Shown: positions 3,276-54,045 of the stretch, in pieces | How positions within the stretch are numbered: the first letter of the stretch is position 1 | How the letters are laid out: each line of letters begins with the position of its first letter | From: a virus | Taxonomy: Duplodnaviria; Caudoviricetes | Length of the DNA: 60,180 bases | Reading direction: 5' to 3' (one strand) | Virus record (IMG/VR): IMGVR_UViG_3300033146_003163 | Coordinates: 1 to 60,180 of that record | Made by a program: the position numbers and the translations under genes | Notes under the pieces: model-generated | The model's input: the letters and a program-made list of their open reading frames with translations, nothing else | Told to the model about the DNA's origin: nothing | Databases searched by the model: none

Positions 3276-4292
3276 ATGTATAGCGTAATCGGATTATCTT
3301 CCGGGGCAGGCATAGTCCTGCACCCCTTTTATCAAAGTCCTGATGTAGAAGTTAAGGCCGGTATAGAATGCCGAAGAGATTATCTATTAGGGGGTATGCC
3401 CGTCCAATTCGAGTTGAATTTCCCAGATGTGACCTATTCAACTAACCTGGAAATCAAACCCGAGTCTGTAGATGTGGTGATCGGCCACCCTAAGTGTGGG
3501 ATGTCTTCCGTCTTCGCCCTCTCTAGAGGGAAGAAGAACACTTCCCATAAAAATGAGCCCTCTCTTGACCTCTTCATAGCAGGGATTCACAAGCTCTTCC
3601 CAAAGTACTTCCTACTTGAGAATCTGCCCAAATTACTGGACACGTACTCGGAAAAGGAGTTCGAAGAGATTTTTGCTAACTACCGGCTGATCTTTTGGCA
3701 CGGGTCAGTAAGCGAGTTCGGAAATTCCCAAAAATCCCGTAAAAGGCTTATTATAATAGGGATTAGGGCTGATCTCTACACCAAGAGAGCTCATAAACTC
3801 CTTTCAAAGCCTAAGCCCGTATATGAACCTCAAACCACTGGCCACCTCTTAATGCACCTTCCTGAGAACGGTCATATCACAGAGGATATCGAGGATGAGA
3901 TAACTATCTATGGTGGAAAGAAGATGTATCTCTGGCAATTACAAAAGTATTGGAGAGACAACCCCGACTTAACCAGGTTTGCTGTAAATAAGGGTAATAT
4001 GAAGTATGCCCCTGGCGTATACATAAACCGAGCAGATAACTACCCTAAGACTGTTCGGAAAACCAACAGGCAATTTAACCCAGACGGTATACAGATGTCC
4101 CCAAGGGAAATGGCCAGAATCCAGGGCGTACCCGATACCTTCAAACTCTGTATGCCAAGTAAACACTGTGTATACGAGGAAAAAACCCTTATTAATAAAG
4201 GCCGGCTGTCAATTGCCAATACCCCTCCTTATGAAGTGGGGCTTTGGTTTAAGCTTTGTATGGATAAGCTATTCCGAACAAATAACAAGTAA
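3276..4292 (+). CDS. Divergent C5-cytosine DNA methyltransferase
   Basis: Motif I-like GLSSGAG, IV GHPKCG, VI LLENLP, VIII QKSRKRLII, IX SPREMARIQGVPDTF, X IANTPP. Confidence 0.8.
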   Translation: MYSVIGLSSGAGIVLHPFYQSPDVEVKAGIECRRDYLLGGMPVQFELNFPDVTYSTNLEIKPESVDVVIGHPKCGMSSVFALSRGKKNTSHKNEPSLDLFIAGIHKLFPKYFLLENLPKLLDTYSEKEFEEIFANYRLIFWHGSVSEFGNSQKSRKRLIIIGIRADLYTKRAHKLLSKPKPVYEPQTTGHLLMHLPENGHITEDIEDEITIYGGKKMYLWQLQKYWRDNPDLTRFAVNKGNMKYAPGVYINRADNYPKTVRKTNRQFNPDGIQMSPREMARIQGVPDTFKLCMPSKHCVYEEKTLINKGRLSIANTPPYEVGLWFKLCMDKLFRTNNK

Positions 4293-5821: not shown

Positions 5822-7312
5822 GTGAGTATATTTGATAAGAATTTTTTTACACTAAGGTCTACTCCCAAGGAGAATACTTCTAAAAAGGAGAAGATCCAGG
5901 AGATAAACCCTCAGAAAACCGTAGGTGTAGGCTTACCAACTTCTAGGGTTAGTGTTCCCGATCTAGAGTCCTCTTATAAGGGGCTTAAGAACTCTATGGA
6001 TTTCGTAACCCCCGATTTCCAATATGAGTACATTCCAATCATCCGTAAGTTATTTAAGGTTAACTCTTCTGTCTTTAGATCTACAGTTACCCTTACAGAA
6101 TTGATTAACTCGGGTTTTAGCTTAGAATTTGACTCTTCAGTTACAGATGAAGTACGTAGAGATATAAACCAACATCTCAAAAAAGTATATAAAACATGGG
6201 GATTAGGTACAGCCGGTATTCACGGTATAATCAATAAAATGGTTAGCCAGATATATGTTGGAGGAGCCTTATCCGTAGAATGGGTCCTTAACAGAGACCT
6301 AACAGGTATAGATTGCCCGGTTTTCGTAAACCCTGAAAATGTCCGAGTAAGATATAACACTTCTACGGGGAGGTATGATTTTTATCAAGTCCCCCACTAC
6401 TGGGAGCCTGGAAGAGATTATACTAAGGATAACGGTGCTATATTACTTAACCCCATTACATATCGTTACTATGGCCTCTTTACTGATGAGGAAAGCCCCA
6501 TAGGAACACCTCCTTTCCTTTCTGCATTGGATGATATCCAATCTCAATTAAAGATGCTCCGTAATATAGGGTTTGTCACTGACCAGCTTGGCCTCATGGG
6601 ATTCTTGGAGGTCATGTTGTCTAAACCCCTCCAAGCAGACGGAGAGAAAGACACCGCTTATATAGCTAGATTAGCTAAGTATTTAAATGACGCAAAAGCT
6701 GCGATAAAAGATGGGACTAAGGACGGAGTAGTTGCAGGTTTTAAAGATGAACATGAGTTCGATTTCCACGCTACTACCAAAGACACCTCTGGGGTAGCAG
6801 ACATCTTTAATATTAACCAAAGGATGGTTTCAAATGGTCTCTTATCTCCCTCTCAGTTCTTGGGAGGAGAGAAAGCGGGGGCTGAGACTGGTTTAGGCAT
6901 TATTTTCACTATGCTATTATCCCAGCTTAACAATATCCAACAATACATATCTGAGATTTTGGAAACTGGAATTTGGATGGAGTTAACCCTTGCTGGGTTT
7001 AAATTTGATTGGTTAGAAGTTAAATTTGATAAGTCAACAGTTACTGATACTTTGAAAGAAGCCCAATCTGAAGAGATAAAGATTAGGAATTCCAATTTAC
7101 TATATGCAGCTGGTATCATATCTCAAGCAACATACGCCAATAGACATGGTTTTGATGCCCCTGACCAAGAGGAACCTCGAGTAGAGATTGATCCTGTAAA
7201 AGCCCAAGCTGAACAAGTAGCTAAAGACAACAAACAGGACCAAGACAACAAGTCCAACCAAAAAACTCGAGAGAAAGAAAAAACACAGCCGAAACGTAAA
7301 GATCAAAAATAG
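5822..7312 (+). CDS. Portal protein
   Basis: 496 aa directly after TerL (GTG start); helical content and charged C-terminal tail. Confidence 0.8.
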   Translation: MSIFDKNFFTLRSTPKENTSKKEKIQEINPQKTVGVGLPTSRVSVPDLESSYKGLKNSMDFVTPDFQYEYIPIIRKLFKVNSSVFRSTVTLTELINSGFSLEFDSSVTDEVRRDINQHLKKVYKTWGLGTAGIHGIINKMVSQIYVGGALSVEWVLNRDLTGIDCPVFVNPENVRVRYNTSTGRYDFYQVPHYWEPGRDYTKDNGAILLNPITYRYYGLFTDEESPIGTPPFLSALDDIQSQLKMLRNIGFVTDQLGLMGFLEVMLSKPLQADGEKDTAYIARLAKYLNDAKAAIKDGTKDGVVAGFKDEHEFDFHATTKDTSGVADIFNINQRMVSNGLLSPSQFLGGEKAGAETGLGIIFTMLLSQLNNIQQYISEILETGIWMELTLAGFKFDWLEVKFDKSTVTDTLKEAQSEEIKIRNSNLLYAAGIISQATYANRHGFDAPDQEEPRVEIDPVKAQAEQVAKDNKQDQDNKSNQKTREKEKTQPKRKDQK

Positions 7313-7326
7313 TAAACATAAAAAAT

Positions 7327-8862
7327 ATGAAAAGTATGAAAAAGCCTAACTTTCCAGAGGTTATGTCTCTGACTCTTTCCCAAGGCCACAGCCTAGTAGT
7401 AGGCCATATCCCTGATAAGGTTTCTATGAGCGATTTATCAAGAGCTATCGTAGAGAATGCTACAGCTGAGTCTATTAAGAGTTTTGGGTTGTTTGACAGT
7501 ACAGCCCCCAATTATACTACTTTCTATCCTGATGCTACGCCTGATGACTGGACTCCCAAAGAAGAAGACTTTGTTACCCCAGTCTTCAGGCTTTTTTCTG
7601 AAACGATCGTGGTTAAGTATGGTATCCCTATTGATTTCTCTACCCCTGGGTTATTAAAGAACTCTATGGGGATGTTAGTTGGGGCTACAGTTAACCCCGA
7701 CCATGAGGGCGGTTCTGTTGGGAATGCTTTGGGGTCTATTCCCTCTGTAGAGTGGCAAGAGAGCTACACTGTTAAAGGAGTACAGATTCCAGCAGGTATC
7801 CTTGGGAAATTGAAGATCGATGCTAAATCTAACCCCAGGATTGCTAGAGGGGTTATGATGGACCCGCCTAGTATCCATTCTACTTCCGTAACTGTAAGGT
7901 TTAAATGGGAGAAGTCCCATCCAGACATGGAAGATTTTTGGGAGAAGGTTGGGTCTTACGATAAGGATCAAAACCTTATTCGGCTTATCGTAACTGAGAT
8001 TACTTCTTATCCTGAGGTATCCTTAGTACACCACGGGGCTGACCCATATGCCCAGAAAACTAACTCAAGTGGGGCTATCGTTAATCCCATTTATGCGAAA
8101 TCCGTATATGCTTTCTCAGCTGACCCTACTGATGGCTCTGAATTAAAGTGCGGTATTAATTTTAAAGGTCTTTGCAGCCTGGCTGCTGACAATACATTTA
8201 TTCATAATCCAAAATCTAATAAAATGGAACTTAAACAAATTTTAGCAATGTTGGGCCTGGCTGAAGATGCCTTTGCAACTCAGGAAGAGCTGCTTGCCCA
8301 TTACGAATCTTTAACTGCTGACCGTACCTCTCTCGAAGATATTTCGACTGAGTTGGGGATTGACGAGGAGTCTTCTCCCGTTGATGCTATTAAAGCCCTC
8401 AAGGATAACCAGATCCCTGAAGGAGCTAAGCTTATGACCGACAAAGAGGCTGCTTTAATAGCCACTTTAACGGAAGTATTCGGAGAAGCTCTCGATACCA
8501 CTGATTGGGCAGAACTTTCTGCTTTAGCTGGTGATGGTAAAACTTACCTCGAGGATATCCGTAGTAAAGCAACTTCCCTGTACAAACTGGTTTCAGGAGA
8601 AGAAAACGTTGATCCTACTATCGTGGAGGCTATCGAAAAAGCTTCTCTCAAAGAAGTTAAAGCCTACGAAGTCATGTACCAGAAACTGGCCGATACCACA
8701 GCCCCTCTCACTTGTCAGGAGTGTGGTTCCAAAAATGTATCTAGAGCTTCTGCTAAGATTGACCCTAAGCCTGGGGAGGATGGCAAAGGTTCCTATGCTG
8801 ATACCAAAAAGAAGGTAGTCGATTCTCACAAACGTAAAGCTTCTGATATCCACGGCGAATAG
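7327..8862 (+). CDS. Prohead protease/scaffold protein
   Basis: Position between portal and capsid genes; protease-like N-half (NPDH, STSV, PEVSLVHHGADP); acidic helical C-half with CQEC. Confidence 0.7.
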   Translation: MKSMKKPNFPEVMSLTLSQGHSLVVGHIPDKVSMSDLSRAIVENATAESIKSFGLFDSTAPNYTTFYPDATPDDWTPKEEDFVTPVFRLFSETIVVKYGIPIDFSTPGLLKNSMGMLVGATVNPDHEGGSVGNALGSIPSVEWQESYTVKGVQIPAGILGKLKIDAKSNPRIARGVMMDPPSIHSTSVTVRFKWEKSHPDMEDFWEKVGSYDKDQNLIRLIVTEITSYPEVSLVHHGADPYAQKTNSSGAIVNPIYAKSVYAFSADPTDGSELKCGINFKGLCSLAADNTFIHNPKSNKMELKQILAMLGLAEDAFATQEELLAHYESLTADRTSLEDISTELGIDEESSPVDAIKALKDNQIPEGAKLMTDKEAALIATLTEVFGEALDTTDWAELSALAGDGKTYLEDIRSKATSLYKLVSGEENVDPTIVEAIEKASLKEVKAYEVMYQKLADTTAPLTCQECGSKNVSRASAKIDPKPGEDGKGSYADTKKKVVDSHKRKASDIHGE

Positions 8863-8930
8863 CCTTCCCCGGATACTACAAGTACTCTTGCTTTAATTAT
8901 TGAAATATTATACATTAAAACTTAAATATT

Positions 8931-9386
8931 ATGACTTGGACATTAGGGTCGACTTCAAAATCGACAATTTTAAAATCGGAGTCCCACAAGCTCTTTCAAG
9001 AGTTTGAGGTCTCGGGCACTATCCACAAAGGACAGCCCGTTCTGCTTGAGCCTGCCACCGGAAAAGTTATAGCTTCTCCTGGTACTGCTGCAGACAAAGA
9101 CGACATTATCGGAATCTCCATCCACGAAGGTAACTCCATTTATGGGGATACTGTAGTAGTGATGATGAAAGCTTTTGCTATCGTTTCTTGTAAACTGGGT
9201 GCTGACGCTACTGCTGGTAAAGTACAGTATTCTGGATACGATACAAGTGATGCTTATCCTGGAAACCAGAAAGAATTTGCTGGTTATAACTTGGTCGAAC
9301 AGGCCGCTAATACCACCCAGATGTGGGGTTGGGCATTACAGCCGGGCGTAGCTGATGAGATTGTAGAAGTAGCTGTTTCTGTATAA
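8931..9386 (+). CDS. Capsid decoration/cement protein
   Basis: 151 aa before MCP; G-Q-P-V..G-K-V..I-I-G-I-S pattern of beta-tulip decoration proteins. Confidence 0.6.
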   Translation: MTWTLGSTSKSTILKSESHKLFQEFEVSGTIHKGQPVLLEPATGKVIASPGTAADKDDIIGISIHEGNSIYGDTVVVMMKAFAIVSCKLGADATAGKVQYSGYDTSDAYPGNQKEFAGYNLVEQAANTTQMWGWALQPGVADEIVEVAVSV

Positions 9387-9447
9387 AGGATCTTACTTCG
9401 GATTAGTTTATTAAATCGAATTTTCGAACTTACAAAATACCTAAAAA

Positions 9448-10563
9448 ATGGATATACAAAAATTCCAAAAGTCTGAATATAAGGATATTCGGACCCTCGT
9501 AAAAGAGGCAGAAGCCTTGCGGGTAGATCCTAAAACTCCTGTTGACGTTACCTTTGCGGAGATGGTTAAAACCAAACACAATGTTGACATCGATACGTTT
9601 TACGAATCTCTTGGCGTTGACCCCGCTTTTGACACGATCTCTAACCTGTTTACATCCCCCGATGCGGATGTTCGTTGGTTAATCCCTGAAATCTTCCGCG
9701 ATGCACTTCGCTTGGGTTACCGTAAAGCCCCAATCTGGCCGAGTATCACTGCCGTTGAAGAGAACACAACCGGTCTTTCACAAATCGTTCCTTCAGTGAA
9801 CATGAGTGATGCCACCCCTAAGAAAGTGGGTGAAGGTGAGACTATTCCTTTGGGAACAATCTCTTACCAGTCGAAACAGTTTTCCATCCATAAGTATGGA
9901 CGTGGTATCAAAATTACCGATGAGGTTGCACAGTACGTTTCACTTAACGTTGTTGCCCTTTATCTCCAGGACTTTGGGGTTAAGATGGGTATGGGAGTTG
10001 ACACTCTTGCCATCGACACTCTGATTAACGGTGAACAGGCTGACGGTTCTGAAGCTGCTCCTGTTATTGGAGTTAAAACTGCCGGTACCCTCACTTTCCG
10101 GGATATTTTGAAAATCTGGATTCGTATGAGTGCCATTGGCCGTATGCCGAAACTTATGATCGGTGGAGAAGACATGGCCCTTGAGACTTGGGACCTTCCT
10201 GAGTTTAAAAAACGTACTGTAAACGGTAACAACCCGGACGGTGCTCCTGTTGCCCGCTTGAATGTTAATACCCCATTACCACAGGGAGCTGACTATTACA
10301 TTCATGGTCTTATCGGTGCCGATCAGCAACTGGTCGTTGACCCCAGTTCTGCTTTGCTTAAGCTTAACGCTCAGCCTATGAAAGTTGAATCTGAAAGGAT
10401 CGTATCTAATCAGAGCTCTGCTTTTTACGCTTCTTTCACCACTGGCTTTGCCAAGATGTTTACCGATGCCTGCTTGATTCAGGATATGAGCAAAGACTTT
10501 GCAAACTTCCCATTCCCACCGGAGATGGATTACTATGCTTTGCAGCATGTTTTAATGGACTAG
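9448..10563 (+). CDS. Major capsid protein (HK97 fold)
   Basis: 371 aa; LIPE, VGEGETIP, KYGRGIKITDE motifs; followed by a strong stem-loop. Confidence 0.9.
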   Translation: MDIQKFQKSEYKDIRTLVKEAEALRVDPKTPVDVTFAEMVKTKHNVDIDTFYESLGVDPAFDTISNLFTSPDADVRWLIPEIFRDALRLGYRKAPIWPSITAVEENTTGLSQIVPSVNMSDATPKKVGEGETIPLGTISYQSKQFSIHKYGRGIKITDEVAQYVSLNVVALYLQDFGVKMGMGVDTLAIDTLINGEQADGSEAAPVIGVKTAGTLTFRDILKIWIRMSAIGRMPKLMIGGEDMALETWDLPEFKKRTVNGNNPDGAPVARLNVNTPLPQGADYYIHGLIGADQQLVVDPSSALLKLNAQPMKVESERIVSNQSSAFYASFTTGFAKMFTDACLIQDMSKDFANFPFPPEMDYYALQHVLMD

Positions 10564-48384: not shown

Positions 48385-49032
48385 ATGGATGTAAAACATT
48401 TAGAAAACATCGAGATCCCTAAACCTAAGCACTATTTTATAACAGTGTGGGGATTACAAAAAGGCTTAGTGAGAGACTATGCTAAAATTGAAAAACTGCC
48501 TGCCTATCCTTTAAACCTGGATCTAAAAGATAGCCAGACTTTGCTGAAGGACTTCATAAGTAGGGCAGTTGAAGAGCTTGCAGAGGCCTATGAACAGATC
48601 ACAGTTCACAAAGACTTCCAACTTTTTTATGAAGAGCTTGCAGATACTCTGCACTTCATGGTGGAGACTATGATTTTCTCAGGCCATCTCCCGGATTTTG
48701 TGGGACCTAAGATGTTGGATATTATCGCAGAGAATGCAGTTGAGAAACCCGGTACAGCAAAGAGTAAAGATATTAACTTTACAGCTTTAGCGATTTGGAT
48801 GTGGGATGTAACCTATCTCCTTAACTTAGCTCGTAACGTTTTCCGGAACAAGCCCTGGAAACAAACTCAGGTTATAACAAAGCAGCCCGAGTACATACTC
48901 CTGTTACGTAAAGCCTTCTCTACTTTTATCTATGGAATGACCAACGTAGTGGGGTTAAGTAAAGAAGAGATCTTTGCTGAGTACTACAAAAAGAATCAGA
49001 TAAACCGTTTTCGCATAAAGAGCAAGTACTAA
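48385..49032 (+). CDS. All-alpha dCTP/dUTP pyrophosphatase (T4 gp56-like)
   Basis: EELAEA, EELADTLHF, NKPWKQ and C-terminal YYKKNQINRFRIKSKY. Confidence 0.85.
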   Translation: MDVKHLENIEIPKPKHYFITVWGLQKGLVRDYAKIEKLPAYPLNLDLKDSQTLLKDFISRAVEELAEAYEQITVHKDFQLFYEELADTLHFMVETMIFSGHLPDFVGPKMLDIIAENAVEKPGTAKSKDINFTALAIWMWDVTYLLNLARNVFRNKPWKQTQVITKQPEYILLLRKAFSTFIYGMTNVVGLSKEEIFAEYYKKNQINRFRIKSKY

Positions 49033-49796
49033 TGATCCAGAAGACCTATGCCACATCCCTTGATGCTTTTCGGGGAATAAATAAAACCCTTTTATTTGAC
49101 GCAGAAGCAATAGAGGAGTCAGGTTTTCAGCAGTCTAGTCAGGTTAATTTATATAACCTATTAGTTAGGGTTGAACGATCCTATCTGTCTGAAGATTTTG
49201 ACTTCTCTGCTCTTGCTAACTACAGGGCAGCAAAGGGGACCTCTCTTATAAACAACTATGTAGACAGGGATTATTTGGATGAAGTAATAGCCCAAGTATT
49301 GCACAAGGAACTACGTAAAACTAAGAGCTATAATCTTAGCTTCCATTTTACGAATGCCCACGATGGTGGGAAGGGCTGCTTACTTACCTGTACTTTTGCC
49401 CGAAGATACAATGACCCAACCCCTGTACTCATAGCCAATGTCAGAGCAAGTGAGAGTTTTAAGCGATTACTATTTGACTTCCTTTTATTACATAGGATGG
49501 GTCAAAAAGCCTATGGGGATCAACCTTTTGCTGTAGAGATTTTCTTTCCGTACATTTGGCAAGTCCCAGATTGGGCTTCCATGTTTCTAAAATTCGATAA
49601 GGCTTCTTTGAGGAAAGCTAAGAAAGCAGAGGAGGGAACATATCCTAACAAGGTGTACAAAAAGTATATCCAGTTAAAGAATACACCTGAAGAAGAGATG
49701 AACGCCTTTAAGTATCATGCCCTTAAAAGGTCTTGGAAGGTTGTAAATGATGCCACTGCCAAGCCCCCTTATCTTGCAGCCGATTTTCAGATTTAA
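49032..49796 (+). CDS. Highly divergent thymidylate-synthase-fold protein
   Basis: KGCLLTCTFARR..VLIANVRASESFKRLLFD aligns with TS PC..F..L..QRSxD-x7-N/D; lacks the SLHxY motif. Confidence 0.6.
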   Translation: MIQKTYATSLDAFRGINKTLLFDAEAIEESGFQQSSQVNLYNLLVRVERSYLSEDFDFSALANYRAAKGTSLINNYVDRDYLDEVIAQVLHKELRKTKSYNLSFHFTNAHDGGKGCLLTCTFARRYNDPTPVLIANVRASESFKRLLFDFLLLHRMGQKAYGDQPFAVEIFFPYIWQVPDWASMFLKFDKASLRKAKKAEEGTYPNKVYKKYIQLKNTPEEEMNAFKYHALKRSWKVVNDATAKPPYLAADFQI

Positions 49797-49837: not shown

Positions 49838-50557
49838 ATGAGAATTTATGGAACGGCAGAAGAATTGATCTCTGAGATATTTAGAGACTTAGATGAGATG
49901 GGGACTATTGTTAAGCCCCGATCTTACCAAAACAAGGACATATCAGGAAACCCCGACTTTATTACAAAGGAGTTACAGATGTATGTGTACGGTTTAGTAG
50001 CATTGCCTGACCCTGAAGTCCTGTTCCTTTTCGAAGGAGAGAAAGCCAAGGATTGGTGTTTGGCAGAGTTCCAGGAAAGAATTGATTTCACGGGGGGTAT
50101 AAACCCTGGAGAGGCTTGGAAAATACGACAAGACGTATGGGAACAATTTTTGGTTAATGGGAAGTTTGATTACACTTACAATCAGAGGTTACAGTTTAAC
50201 TCTAACCTTCATCTAATTATCCATGAACTGAAAAGAAACCCTGGCTCAAGGCAGTGTTGGTTACCTATTTTTAACCCAGATGACGTTGGTTACCTCGGAG
50301 GTAAGAAACGTATACCCTGTTCTTTGGGCTATCATTTTATGGTACGAGATGGGAAACTCTCTATGACTTATGTCCAACGGTCTGCCGATGCTGTACAGCA
50401 TTTTGGGAATGATATATATTTAGCTTGGATGATGAAAGAATGGGTAGCTAAACAGATTAATGTAGAACCCGGCTATCTGTTTCATAACATCTTTAGCCTA
50501 CACTCTTACCGAAAAGATTGGGGGAAATTAAAAAAGGGAATTTCAAAACTTATATAG
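49838..50557 (+). CDS. dCMP (hydroxy)methyltransferase-like, thymidylate synthase family
   Basis: YTYNQR, NPGSRQ, IPCSL, QRSADAVQHFGND (Asp at the E. coli Asn177 position), FSLHSY. Confidence 0.85.
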   Translation: MRIYGTAEELISEIFRDLDEMGTIVKPRSYQNKDISGNPDFITKELQMYVYGLVALPDPEVLFLFEGEKAKDWCLAEFQERIDFTGGINPGEAWKIRQDVWEQFLVNGKFDYTYNQRLQFNSNLHLIIHELKRNPGSRQCWLPIFNPDDVGYLGGKKRIPCSLGYHFMVRDGKLSMTYVQRSADAVQHFGNDIYLAWMMKEWVAKQINVEPGYLFHNIFSLHSYRKDWGKLKKGISKLI

Positions 50558-50558
50558 A

Positions 50559-50906
50559 ATGGGAAAATTAAAAGAACAGAAAGAGCGAGGCTATAAGGCC
50601 ATCGCTCTTTTAGTATCACAGCTCTCCGAGTTGCAACCTAAACAAGGTTTAATAGTAGTGAAAGATAAGAGGATAGTAACCTCTTGTTTTAACCAGGTAA
50701 AAGGGGGCTTGGCTTTAACTGCAATTGATGTCTTAAACGATATCATACATGATAACCCCAAGATTCGAGAAGACCTCAGACAGTCCAGGGTATTCCACGT
50801 GGGGGATGTAAGCAATGAAGATGCAGAATGGATAGCAGGAGAGGGGATAAAACAATTAATAATAATAAAACATGAAGTCAGTTTACCGCATATGCCGATC
50901 ACTTGA
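50559..50906 (+). CDS. dCMP deaminase-like protein lacking catalytic Zn ligands
   Basis: GLIVVKDKRIVTSCFN and AEWIAGEGIKQLII match the deaminase scaffold; HAE and PCxxC are absent. Confidence 0.6.
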   Translation: MGKLKEQKERGYKAIALLVSQLSELQPKQGLIVVKDKRIVTSCFNQVKGGLALTAIDVLNDIIHDNPKIREDLRQSRVFHVGDVSNEDAEWIAGEGIKQLIIIKHEVSLPHMPIT

Positions 50907-53100
50907 GGAGGTAAAGAAGGTTATCTCTTACTGTAAGGTGACTGGGTATGCTAGTGTTGACTTTGAAACTACTGGTAGCAACCCTAGAGACCCTAACTTT
51001 TACCCTACTATTATAGGGGTATCCTTCCAAGTAGGTAGTTCCTGGATTATACCTTTGGGACATTTTGATTCCCCCTTTGAGGATTGGAGGGAGGTCTTTG
51101 ACCTATTTGCCAGGGAGGTATGGGAGAACCCAGCTATAACTAAGTTTGCTTGGAATGCTATCTTTGAAACTAAGGTCTTCTTACACTACGGATATCATGT
51201 ACGGGGTAGATTGCTTGATGGGTTACTTGCTAAGTACTTACTGAATGAGGAAAGGCCTAATGACCTCAAGTCTATCACTGATCAGTTTTTACCCGATTTT
51301 GCTGGGTATGATTTACCGGGTCAGCCTGGTAAGAAAGCAAGTAAGGAAGCTATCTTTAACTTCTGGTCCAACGTAGAGTTAGAAGAGTTATCAGAATATT
51401 GTGGTCTTGACTGCGATAATACTTTTAGATTAACTTTACACTTTGAGAATAGACTGATTGATTTAGGGTTGTACCACTTACTCCGTAACCTTTATATGCC
51501 TCTGGTGAAAGTAATAGCAGAGTCTACCCTTGATGGGGTCCATATTGATAGGACTTATCTGAAGTGGTTAGATGGGTTCTTTGCTAAAAAGATAGCAGCT
51601 GTAGAGAAAACGCTATTTGATATCCCTGAAGTTGAAGAGTATAACGAGATCTTCGTAGAAGATAAGATCGAAGCATACATAGATGAGATTCAAGACGAGA
51701 TTGACTTTGATAATTTATCGAATAGCCAGATTGCTGCAAGAGAAGAGAAAATATCTAGGGTAGAGGCTGGAGAGCCCACAACAAAGAAGGAATTAAAACT
51801 TTTTGAAAACCTTAATTTTGGTTCTCCTAAACAACTGATAGGTTTATTATATGAATCGGAGGATGGGTTTGAGTTTCCAATATTAGGAAGGTCTAAGACA
51901 GGGGCCCCAGCAACAGATGAAACAACTCTGTTAAAGCTTAAGCCATACGATGAGAGCGGGTTTATTGATAAGCTCTTAGAGTTTAGGGGAATAAAGAAAC
52001 TATATTCCACCTATGTTAAGAATATCCTGGAAGAACAGCTAACCGATGAGGATAGGTTACACCCAAGCTTTCTTCCATTCGGGACAGTGACTGGGAGGTT
52101 AAGCAGTAGGAATCCCAATTTCCAGAATCTCCCAAGAGTAAAAGGAAAGGATTCTCTAGATTCTTATATAAAGAAATACATCATCCCACCTCCCGGATGT
52201 CTATTCTTGGAATCAGATGGGTCCCAGATGGAATTACGAGTTGCAGCAGAATTAGCCAGAGATAAGGCTATGATGGAGGTATACAATCAGGGTAAGAACA
52301 TCCACGTGCAGACTGCTTCACTAGTATTTGGTATCCCCTATGGGGACATTCAAAAAGCTAGAAAGGACCCTGACCATCCTCAACATGATGCAATGGTTAA
52401 GAAACACAAAGCAGCTAAGGTATTAAACTTCACAATCTTTTATGGGGCTGGTGCTAAGAAAGTAGCAGAGTTCTTAACAGAGAGGACTGGGGACTACCAT
52501 ACAAAGGAGGAGGCAGAGGAAATGATTGAGGACTGGTTTGCAGCTTTCCCTGATATTGGTAGGTGGATAAAAAGAATAAGGAAACAGGCTAAACGGGATG
52601 GTTATGTAACTAACATGTTTGGGTTTAAGAGACGGCTGCCAATCTTATTGGAAAATCCAAAACAACTGCAAGGAAAGGAATCTTATAGTTATGCAGAGGC
52701 AGAGAGGCAAGCTATCAACAGTATAATACAGGGCTCTGCTTCTATGATAACCTTATGGTTAGCGATTAAGGTATATGAAGCGGTACGTTTAGGTATACTA
52801 CCTGACTATCTAAAGTTGGTGATCACCGTACATGATTCAATTGAGTATACCCCAATTGTTAAAGATGCAGCCCGTGTAGTAAAGACCATCCAAGACATGG
52901 CTGTTGCATTACCCGAGATGGAAGACTATCTTGGGGCTACTATGAAGAACGTACCTATGAAATTCTCCTCTGAGATTGGGATTAATTGGGGAGTAATGCA
53001 GGAAGTAGAGCGGGATATGGATTATGCCCAGTTCTATATGGAACAGTGGGAAAAGTATAACCAGGCTGAATTCCCACACATAAATTATTTAAAAACTTAA
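50872..53100 (+). CDS. polA: Family A DNA polymerase with 3'-5' exonuclease
   Basis: VDFETTG, YCGLD, TGRLSSRNPNFQNLP, motif A DGSQMELR, motif B AKVLNFTIFYG, motif C TVHDS. Confidence 0.95.
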   Translation: MKSVYRICRSLEEVKKVISYCKVTGYASVDFETTGSNPRDPNFYPTIIGVSFQVGSSWIIPLGHFDSPFEDWREVFDLFAREVWENPAITKFAWNAIFETKVFLHYGYHVRGRLLDGLLAKYLLNEERPNDLKSITDQFLPDFAGYDLPGQPGKKASKEAIFNFWSNVELEELSEYCGLDCDNTFRLTLHFENRLIDLGLYHLLRNLYMPLVKVIAESTLDGVHIDRTYLKWLDGFFAKKIAAVEKTLFDIPEVEEYNEIFVEDKIEAYIDEIQDEIDFDNLSNSQIAAREEKISRVEAGEPTTKKELKLFENLNFGSPKQLIGLLYESEDGFEFPILGRSKTGAPATDETTLLKLKPYDESGFIDKLLEFRGIKKLYSTYVKNILEEQLTDEDRLHPSFLPFGTVTGRLSSRNPNFQNLPRVKGKDSLDSYIKKYIIPPPGCLFLESDGSQMELRVAAELARDKAMMEVYNQGKNIHVQTASLVFGIPYGDIQKARKDPDHPQHDAMVKKHKAAKVLNFTIFYGAGAKKVAEFLTERTGDYHTKEEAEEMIEDWFAAFPDIGRWIKRIRKQAKRDGYVTNMFGFKRRLPILLENPKQLQGKESYSYAEAERQAINSIIQGSASMITLWLAIKVYEAVRLGILPDYLKLVITVHDSIEYTPIVKDAARVVKTIQDMAVALPEMEDYLGATMKNVPMKFSSEIGINWGVMQEVERDMDYAQFYMEQWEKYNQAEFPHINYLKT

Positions 53101-53391: not shown

Positions 53392-54045
53392 ATGAAAAAA
53401 CCATTAAAAGTAGCATTCTCTGGCCCGAGTGGGTTAGGGAAAAGTACTCTCTGTAAATACATACAGGATGCTATTAGCCTGGAGTGGTTATCTACAAGTG
53501 CCGGGGATATTTTTACTGGGGCTGATGTTGCCCTATTAAAAGATAAGTATGGGTATTCCCAGTCCGGCCATAGGGATGTCATTAACCTGAGTGCCGATAA
53601 CCCTGAGTTTGGGTGGACATTCCAAAGGTTAATCCTAAACCGTAGAGCGGATCAGATCTTTACTCACAATGACTTTGTAATCGACCGATCCCCTATGGAT
53701 AATGTCGCCTATATGTTATCCCAAATCTCACACCAGGCTTCTGAAGATGATATAAAAGGGTTTATACAAACGGCCCAGATAGCTTACCAGGAGTTGACAC
53801 ATGTCATTCAGATTCGCCATTCTCCAGATATCCCCTCTATAGAGGACAACGGTAGTAGAATCCCCAATACTTACTTCCAAAAGTATATATCTGACGTATT
53901 TATGGGGGTTTACGCTAGATACTTTGCTAACCAACCGGGCCCAAGGGTCATCACAATCGATTTCTGGGATTTAACGGAAAGAAAAAGGGTAGTAAGGGAC
54001 TTCCTAAAGAACCCCCAAATGGAGATGGATTATGCGGGTTCCTAA
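53392..54045 (+). CDS. P-loop deoxynucleoside monophosphate kinase
   Basis: FSGPSGLGKST, FVIDRSPMDNVAY, IEDNGSR. Confidence 0.8.
   Translation: MKKPLKVAFSGPSGLGKSTLCKYIQDAISLEWLSTSAGDIFTGADVALLKDKYGYSQSGHRDVINLSADNPEFGWTFQRLILNRRADQIFTHNDFVIDRSPMDNVAYMLSQISHQASEDDIKGFIQTAQIAYQELTHVIQIRHSPDIPSIEDNGSRIPNTYFQKYISDVFMGVYARYFANQPGPRVITIDFWDLTERKRVVRDFLKNPQMEMDYAGS

Follow-up and report, generated by a model that had tools for sequence, protein, structure and literature searches.

A cryptic second thymidylate-synthase-fold protein beside a recognisable thymidylate-synthase-like gene in phages, and its predicted place in cytosine nucleotide modification

Homologues of thymidylate synthase (TS) are the entry point of almost all known pre-replicative pyrimidine hypermodification in phages, that is, of 5-hydroxymethylcytosine, 5-hydroxymethyluracil, 5-methylcytosine and 5-hydroxycytosine (2025–26). 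TS-family enzymes are dimers with active sites built from both subunits, and in phage T4 one of them, the deoxycytidine monophosphate (dCMP) hydroxymethylase gp42, acts between the deoxycytidine triphosphatase (dCTPase) gp56 and the deoxynucleoside monophosphate (dNMP) kinase gp1. Until now, the modification chemistry has been deduced from a handful of active-site positions in one enzyme (numbered here as in E. coli ThyA). According to the accessible part of PMC13326640, N177D gives a preference for dCMP, Asp or Glu at L143 goes with hydroxymethylation by admitting water to the methylene intermediate, D169N marks every tested 5-hydroxy-dCMP (5hodCMP) synthase, and G173 is among 12 residues that lie at most 6 Å from C5; TS homologues with non-folate chemistry exist, and the enzymes treated in that part of the paper are single ones. 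Here we analyse a linear virus record of 60,180 bases, IMGVR_UViG_3300033146_003163 of IMG/VR (the whole stretch is called the window; CheckV completeness 71%), in which a gene for a 254-residue protein (49032..49796, + strand; hereafter the target) stands before a recognisable TS-like gene (49838..50557, + strand). Structure models, fold searches and homologues support reading the target as a cryptic second TS-fold protein that keeps the catalytic Cys and carries Asp at the base-specificity position.

At the level of sequence, the target is nearly silent. The 254-residue protein had no match in Pfam, PHROGs, NCBIfam or the PDB sequences (phmmer), PF00303 matched neither the target at E ≤ 1 nor any of 71 family members at E ≤ 0.1, BLASTP against the neighbouring TS-like protein gave nothing significant, and the ESM Atlas yielded no more than clusters labelled 'hypothetical protein', in one of which 10% of the members carry PF00303. 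Centrin came up in a profile search of the PDB (E 0.07–0.4), over the helical C terminus only, and was taken as chance. A preliminary description of the window had nevertheless picked out a putative catalytic Cys (KGCL), an R-A-S-E-x7-D segment with Asp at the specificity position, the lack of the SLHxY and SRQ motifs, and translational coupling to the upstream gene through TAATG, and these observations hold in the translation and coordinates. Cys116 lies in GGKGCLL (codon at 49377..49379, + strand) and is the predicted C6-attacking nucleophile, equivalent to C146 of E. coli ThyA on the basis of hhalign and conservation; the segment reads R138-A-S-E141-SFKRLLF-D149 (49443..49478, + strand) and was aligned by hhalign, by way of the neighbour, to R166 … D169 … N177 of ThyA; neither SLHxY nor SRQ is present; and the TAA of the upstream pyrophosphatase gene (49030–49032) overlaps the ATG of the target gene (49032–49034), so that stop and start share the pentamer at 49030..49034 (+ strand).

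The fold carries the assignment. With a 71-sequence alignment, AlphaFold2 (AF2) modelled the target at a predicted local distance difference test score (pLDDT) of 96.2 and a predicted template modelling score (pTM) of 0.92; with only 3 sequences, the pLDDT was 37.7. Foldseek against the PDB ranked AfhB of phage HY126 first (9iqu, E 1.3e-06) and MilA next, and below these came many thymidylate synthases and T4 dCMP hydroxymethylase. VIA-align of the target gave a Z of 14.5 for 9iqu (180 aligned residues, root mean square deviation (r.m.s.d.) 3.6), 14.1 for 9iqc, 13.5 for MilA and approximately 10–11 for ThyA chains. In a Foldseek-independent search of 48,161 representative PDB chains, only seven reached Z ≥ 5, all of them members of the TS family (9.4–14.1; that is, AfhB at 14.1, MilA at 11.8, and ThyA and T4 dCMP hydroxymethylase at 9.4–10.2), and the eighth chain scored 4.3. 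As Foldseek and VIA-align of the AF2 model both place TS-family chains on top, the TS fold suggested in the preliminary description stands, and we conclude that the target, as modelled, has the TS alpha/beta fold. The best matches cover residues 1–190 and leave residues 190–254 unaligned; this helical C-terminal third is family-specific and includes a conserved K-Y-K…R233 motif. Among viral structure predictions (BFVD), two uncharacterised viral proteins (template modelling score (TM) 0.89–0.91) and an uncharacterised protein of Pseudomonas phage PMBT14 (TM 0.67) lead, with annotated viral TS and dCMP hydroxymethylases ranked below the PMBT14 protein.

A word-indexed search retrieved only two close relatives of the target (70–75% identity), and an exhaustive HMMER search from the alignment of those relatives extended this to 90 cluster representatives at E ≤ 0.001 (81 at E ≤ 1e-10). 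Seeded with an 11-sequence alignment, a pattern scan of IMG/VR found 449 stretches that encode the family; in a genome-contig scan only 2 relatives appeared, on contigs of approximately 80 kb from metagenome-assembled genomes. The 71-sequence family alignment spans 21–75% identity to the window protein, with Y64, K68, L72, Y76, C116, R138, R145 and D149 invariant and N17, W69, N75, F106, N108, G113, K114, L117, E141, K144, L152, R155 and R233 at least 90% conserved. When the representatives, the proteins of the loci described below and four cultured-phage homologues were pooled (214 distinct sequences, 12 of which are fragments of 75–170 residues that are gapped at the catalytic columns), Cys116, Arg138 and Asp149 were each present in all 202 covering sequences and position 141 was Glu in 198 and Asp in 4; Tyr64 (204/204), Lys68 (205/205) and Tyr76 (204/204) were equally constant. 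The distant homologues of Clostridium, Serratia, Yersinia and Pseudomonas phages also keep the Cys, Arg, Glu-or-Asp and Asp residues together with the conserved Tyr and Lys residues. This conserved motif pattern is far beyond chance. Within the family, the clade of the window protein, P0002 and P0003 has Gly or Ala in place of the near-invariant Trp69, and the window protein has Phe where most members carry Trp13 and Tyr185; these replacements suggest an altered co-substrate pocket in the lineage of the window protein. Some members also bear C-terminal extensions, with AT-hook-like GRP motifs in P0021, P0062 and P0070, Lys-rich tails in P0014, P0017 and P0031, and acidic tails in P0054 and the 330-residue paralogue of one locus (L001, 4121–5113); a count over 93 family proteins gave three AT-hook-like GRP, three Lys-rich and one acidic tail.

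The correspondence of these residues to TS was read through the neighbour. This 239-residue protein is a recognisable member of the TS family (PF00303, 5.1e-15), and its profile finds TS and AfhB chains in the PDB (best match 9iqu of AfhB, 5.3e-17); given this confident profile alignment, its C161, R181, D184 and D192 can be equated with C146, R166, D169 and N177 of the E. coli enzyme. When the target was aligned with the neighbour's family by hhalign (30 sequences; probability 7.3%, E 0.0048), and again globally with a 17-sequence neighbour alignment (probability 12.4%, E 0.00055; same core aligned), both runs set C116, R138, E141 and D149 opposite C161, R181, D184 and D192. On this alignment, the catalytic Cys (C146) would be Cys116, conserved in 202/202 sequences, the phosphate-binding Arg and acidic residue (R166/D169) would be Arg138 and Glu141, with Ala139 at the position of Ser167, and the mark of the cytosine branch, Asp at the N177 position, would be Asp149, aligned to Asp192 of the neighbour. 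By offset from Glu141, Lys144-Arg145 falls at the L172-G173 positions, and the L143 position is Gly113 (Gly in 68 of 71 sequences). The Asp or Glu of the T4 type is thus missing from the L143 position of the target (Gly113), and so are the marks of a 5hodCMP synthase (that is, Asn at D169 and an acidic residue at L143), in place of which stand Glu141 and Gly113. In the region of the cross-subunit Arg pair, the global alignment, itself weak, sets Lys96 opposite Arg138 of the neighbour; no position of this loop is strongly conserved in the family, and Lys occurs at position 95 in 43 of 68 sequences. In TS, the His207/Tyr209 pair binds the 3′-OH of the deoxyribose. The corresponding region of the target contains no His; hhalign (weakly) sets positions 184–185 opposite the H-x-Y of the neighbour, and these are Met-Tyr in most family members and Met-Phe in the window protein.

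In the neighbour itself, the N177, D169 and L143 positions are occupied by Asp192, Asp184 and Arg158, and across 17 diverse sequences R158-x-P-C161, R181-S182-x-D184, H188, D192 and L221-H222 are invariant, with Cys161 lying in an R-I-P-C motif. As it has Asp192 at the N177 position, we predict it to be cytosine-specific, and as it keeps Asp184, the D169N rule argues that it is not a 5hodCMP synthase; beyond this, the published residue rules do not predict its product. Where TS has the cross-subunit pair R126-R127, the neighbour has a single Arg (R138-Q). The subfamily to which it belongs has an invariant R158 at the L143 position, at which hydroxymethylases and hydroxylases carry Asp or Glu.

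Among characterised proteins, AfhB (the flavin-dependent dCMP hydroxylase, that is, 5hodCMP synthase, of E. coli phage HY126; 9iqu and 9iqc) is the closest solved structure to the target (180 residues, r.m.s.d. 3.5–3.6). Both are small phage TS folds that keep the Cys and have Asp at the N177 position, yet they share only 12% identity with no sequence-level match, the Pfam TS-type profiles find AfhB but not the target, and the D169 position, Glu in the target, is Asn in enzymes of the AfhB, RB69 gp48 and DLP3 gp80 type. MilA, a CMP 5-hydroxymethylase (5jnh, 5b6d and 5b6e), likewise shares the TS fold (Z 11.8–13.5) and, according to the accessible part of PMC13326640, is a Cys enzyme that is specific for cytosine nucleotides and has Asp at the N177 position. 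Unlike the target, it is folate-dependent, carries Asp at L143 (Gly113 in the target), is 318 residues long and has the classical cofactor elements, with identity of 10–13%. ThyA agrees with the target in core fold (Z approximately 10) and in the Cys and Arg positions, but has Asn177 and L172-G173 in place of Asp and Lys-Arg, differs in the C-terminal third, and possesses an SRR loop and a His207/Tyr209 pair that are not conserved in the target; moreover, phages with the module carry a separate ThyA or ThyX. T4 gp42 resembles the target in fold (Z 9.5 to 6l18), and the T4 scheme resembles the module described here in combining a pyrophosphatase, a TS-fold enzyme and a kinase beside replication genes. 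Whereas one TS-fold enzyme suffices in T4, a second TS-fold protein is constant in the module of the target, which lacks an acidic residue at the L143 position.

This constancy is apparent in IMG/VR, for which we examined the best 80 of 449 target-seeded and the best 80 of 566 TS-like-seeded loci (some contigs are in both samples); as only the 80 best matches were kept per scan, these samples are biased to human-gut phages. A TS-family open reading frame (ORF) lies directly downstream of the target gene on the same strand in 76 of the 80 target-seeded loci, and three of the other four end 182–581 nucleotides past the target gene. The true exception, L030, has no TS-like gene within 2.3 kb downstream and reads helicase, 132-residue ORF, target, 170-residue unidentified ORF and PolA; that the 170-residue ORF might be a remnant of a TS gene was rejected after a check. 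In the reverse scan, 79 of 80 TS-like genes have a member of the target family upstream, and the exception, L120, has only 179 nucleotides of upstream sequence. Overlaps of 4 or 17 nucleotides between the two genes are common, and the spacing is −4 nucleotides in 20 and 197 nucleotides in 39 of the 79 target-bearing loci. In 13 representative loci, a dUTPase_2 pyrophosphatase directly precedes the target gene in 10 (a trimeric dUTPase is sometimes among the neighbours), and a dCMP deaminase follows the TS-like gene in 6, after which come PolA and a dNK-like P-loop kinase. Genes intervene between target and TS-like gene in a few cases, namely Cpn10 (L010 and L073), a dUTPase (L015) and an HNH-type gene (L003). 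The near-obligate synteny and the stop/start overlaps in many phages support a functional link of the target with both its TS-like neighbour and the pyrophosphatase.

The module is also present in cultured phages. In ten records of Clostridium perfringens phages (P21, CPAS-15, CP3, CPD4 and others), the gene order is kinase, pyrophosphatase, homologue and thyA-like gene, and their homologue matches the family in hhalign at a probability of 98.3% (E 1.4e-14); Serratia phages Tlacuache, Serbin and Opt-155 carry the module with a homologue matched at 91.5% (E 8.8e-07). Further matches occur in Pseudomonas phages PMBT14, Almagne, STP12 and Lebethron, Stutzerimonas phage STP9, Yersinia phage vB_YenM_P744, two Brevundimonas phages and one Desulfofustis phage, and in PMBT14 and P744 the order is thymidylate-kinase-like gene, pyrophosphatase/dUTPase, homologue, thymidylate synthase, deaminase and PolA. 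PHROG 34294, of unknown function, has the homologue of the Clostridium perfringens phage as its founding type (2.1e-180); the homologues of Serratia, Pseudomonas, Yersinia and gut phages match this PHROG weakly, and the window protein, although related, does not reach it. Record labels are mostly 'hypothetical', with the exceptions of 'pyrimidine hmase synthase' for ORF027 of Yersinia phage vB_YenM_P744 (a label borne also by a feature that underlies the match in MW202455) and 'colanic acid biosynthesis glycosyltransferase' for the homologue of CPAS-15; no experimental basis for these labels was found. Taken with its fold and conservation, the target family is a new, uncharacterised and widespread subfamily of the known TS superfamily with a fixed partnership.

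In several loci of gut phages, this partnership involves more than two genes. Two target paralogues (of approximately 330 and approximately 245–262 residues) precede a single TS-like gene in MT121960, MT121964, MT836181, L088, L145 and L152, and both keep Y64, K68, W69, Y76, the Cys, the Arg, the Glu or Asp, R145 and D149. Four TS-fold genes follow one another in L088 (ThyA, paralogue, paralogue and TS-like), of which ThyA matches TS of the PDB at 2.7e-72; in MT121960 (L001), a ThyX-like ORF, read from a motif of the RHRxxSxxxxSxR type, lies between the paralogues. The long paralogue of L145 matches the hidden Markov model of the TS-like family at 8.1e-4 (in a small local database). As such loci have a separate ThyX or ThyA, neither TS-fold protein of the pair would be needed for the synthesis of dTMP.

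Given these observations, we propose that the target is an active enzyme, a highly diverged member of the TS/dCMP hydroxymethylase group, and works in a co-translated line from dCTP through dCMP to modified dCMP, and we rate the chance of this as roughly even. The pyrophosphatase would convert dCTP to dCMP, the two TS-fold proteins would convert dCMP to a modified dCMP, and the P-loop kinase and the phage polymerase would carry the product into DNA. The target would bind dCMP or C5-modified dCMP, with Cys116 adding to C6 of the pyrimidine. Given that Lys144 and Arg145 occupy the L172 and G173 positions, it would not be a classical user of methylene-tetrahydrofolate; the same is indicated by the replacement of the folate-binding helices and C terminus with family-specific elements, the invariant residues of which are Tyr64, Lys68, Tyr76, Arg155 and Arg233. 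The target is thus, as far as its residues tell, probably folate-independent. For the step itself we prefer, as inference only, that Cys116 adds to C6 of the neighbour's product and that the C5 substituent is exchanged or elaborated through an intermediate of the exocyclic-methylene type, with the basic pocket holding an anionic co-substrate or leaving group. The fuller proposal, namely that in many phages (hundreds of gut phage contigs and cultured phages of Pseudomonas, Serratia, Yersinia and Clostridium among them) the two TS-fold proteins jointly make an undescribed cytosine derivative at the mononucleotide level, and that the target employs the usual attack of Cys on C6 for a reaction not known from any TS-fold enzyme, such as exchanging or extending the C5 substituent with an anionic co-substrate, possibly as part of the first natural heterodimeric TS-family enzyme, is tentative, and we regard it as possible rather than probable.

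Several points weigh against a catalytic role of this kind. A role of the target as the first enzyme, or in parallel with the neighbour, is just as possible as a second-step role. The placing of C116, R138, E141 and D149 on C146, R166, D169 and N177 is weak, resting on a short low-probability alignment together with the shared fold, and the family conserves neither the SRR loop of TS nor the His/Tyr pair that holds the 3′-OH. Trp69, present in 199 of 205 family sequences, is Gly in the window's clade, and position 185, Tyr in 172 of 201 covering sequences, is Phe in the window protein; given these two residues, co-substrate binding by the window copy may be different or weaker. The AT-hook-like, Lys-rich or acidic tails of some members may leave room for a DNA- or replisome-associated role. 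Within the window, the 115-residue ORF in the slot of the relatives' dCMP deaminase (50559..50906, + strand) lacks the zinc-binding motifs, and the same phage encodes a C5-cytosine DNA methyltransferase (3276–4292, + strand; PF00145, 5.3e-18), which would find no substrate if all cytosines were C5-substituted. Finally, no substrate, product or activity is on record for any family member. Searches of the accessible literature found no account of the target family, of a module with two TS-fold proteins or of modified DNA in the phages that carry it.

The preliminary description had offered either a heterodimeric dCMP-modifying enzyme or a folate-independent tailoring step. A reading that overlaps with the proposal made here is that the target is half of an obligate heterodimer with the TS-like neighbour, that is, of one asymmetric enzyme in which it supplies a second, different active site or completes that of the neighbour; this would be compatible with the catalytic role if the target were catalytic as well. 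The near-obligate adjacency in both directions (76/80 and 79/80 loci), the frequent gene overlap (with the −4 spacing in 20 of 79 target-bearing loci), the retention of the pair in unrelated cultured phages and the single Arg of the neighbour (R138-Q) at the place of the R126-R127 cross-subunit pair all speak for such a partnership. However, no fusion of target and TS was found among the 9 longest of the 90 representatives (306–483 residues, no TS domain by Pfam), among which P0021, P0035, P0062 and P0070 instead have low-complexity, basic or AT-hook-like extensions; in at least 7 loci, two intact paralogues accompany one TS-like gene (among them L001–L003, L088, L145 and L152), which a simple 1:1 dimer leaves unexplained; and the pair is separated by other genes in L010, L073, L015 and L003, with L030 lacking a TS-like gene within the 2.3 kb noted above. 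The two-paralogue loci are somewhat easier to reconcile with an independent enzyme than with a heterodimer of fixed 1:1 ratio, but do not decide between the two. Complex prediction of the target with the neighbour gave an ipSAE of 0.00 in two runs, with no controls folded, and counts neither way. We consider an obligate heterodimer unlikely, if still to be reckoned with.

If the target instead works alone at the first step in the manner of AfhB, it would use a non-folate cofactor (for example, flavin) to place a different group on C5 of dCMP, acting alongside the neighbour and not after it. The AfhB entries are indeed the closest solved structures (Z 14.5 for 9iqu and 14.1 for 9iqc), and non-folate TS homologues exist according to the accessible part of PMC13326640. 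Yet the D169N mark is missing (Glu141), the L143 position is Gly rather than Glu, and the sequence similarity to AfhB belongs to the neighbour (5.3e-17) and not to the target; furthermore, the lead over MilA is approximately 1 Z unit in VIA-align, in effect a tie, and 2.3 in the Foldseek-independent search, and may reflect only the similarly small TS fold of AfhB. This makes the AfhB kind of enzyme quite improbable. Still less credible is a non-catalytic TS-fold protein, either a nucleotide-sensing regulator or a scaffold linking the replication machinery to the pyrophosphatase and the TS-like enzyme: the translational coupling of the three genes and the AT-hook-like, Lys-rich and acidic tails, which suit binding to DNA or replisome proteins, fit such a role, but it needs no invariant set of Cys, Arg, Glu and Asp across sequences that are 21–35% identical, and the window protein itself has no such tail. 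Least credible of all is action on cytosine or modified cytosine already in DNA, by a TS-fold equivalent of the chemistry of C5 DNA methyltransferases, for although the AT-hook-like motifs (P0021, P0062 and P0070), the Lys-rich tails (P0014, P0017 and P0031) and the many invariant basic residues (K68, K114, K144, R145, R155 and R233) would suit it, the gene sits in a mononucleotide module (pyrophosphatase, deaminase and kinase), basic tails occur in only 6 of 93 proteins, and, to our knowledge, all characterised TS-fold members act on mononucleotides.

To return to the preferred role, a catalytically active target would add a new reaction to a textbook fold. The target consistently accompanies one subfamily of TS homologues (449 IMG/VR stretches and several cultivable phages) and is missed by profile searches, so that annotation pipelines overlook one component of these pathways. 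If the proposal is true, it points to an undescribed DNA base and bears on the evasion of restriction and CRISPR, on sequencing bias in gut viromes and on enzymatic tools. Cultured pairs, for example Pseudomonas fluorescens and phage PMBT14, make the question directly testable.

In the window, structural genes come first and are followed by the replication block that contains the target gene. Before the module, this block encodes a DnaB-like helicase, a primase, a helicase of superfamily 2 and a small Cys-rich protein; after it come PolA, the P-loop kinase, a gp32-like single-stranded-DNA-binding protein, and RecA-like, Mre11-like and Rad50-like proteins. The gene directly upstream of the target (48385..49032, + strand) encodes an all-alpha nucleoside triphosphate pyrophosphohydrolase of the dUTPase_2/MazG-like kind (PF08761, 1.7e-08; PHROG 12184 and 173, nucleotide pyrophosphohydrolase), a candidate dCTPase that would supply dCMP. 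The ORF at 50559–50906 has no match in Pfam, PHROGs or NCBIfam, and related phages carry PF00383 at this place; with 18–27% identity to these deaminases and both the HAE and the PCxxC zinc motif missing, its translation appears to be a degenerate deaminase or pseudoenzyme. The family A DNA polymerase (50872..53100, + strand; PF00476, 5e-73) has a 3′–5′ exonuclease domain (PF01612), and the P-loop (d)NMP-kinase-like protein (53392..54045, + strand), with weak Pfam matches to AAA_28, Cytidylate_kin and dNK and a match to PHROG 2107 (thymidylate kinase, 1.7e-07), is a candidate kinase for modified dCMP. A DNA cytosine methyltransferase is also annotated in the related record MT121964.

A few further features were seen in the loci of relatives. 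The Cpn10/GroES-like inserts (PF00166) lie at 6832–7176 of L010 and 6777–7097 of L073, that is, in two phage groups. In Serratia phage Tlacuache (gp39; L085, 6865–9357), the PolA that adjoins the module has an N-terminal domain of the uracil-DNA-glycosylase superfamily (PF03167, 1.7e-15). The PolA of MT121960 (L001, 8380–12645) is 1,421 residues long, approximately twice the usual length, and contains stretches that read as HNH/LAGLIDADG-like, which suggests inteins or homing-endonuclease insertions. Right after the TS-like gene of MT121964 (L002), an IspD/TarI-like cytidylyltransferase is encoded at 8140–8895 (IspD, 1.1e-19; ribitol-5-phosphate cytidylyltransferase, 6.3e-10), followed at 8888–9760 by an FKRP/LicD-like transferase (1.1e-07 to fukutin-related protein), and these two genes hint that a hydroxylated base in the DNA of that phage is decorated with a polyol phosphate.

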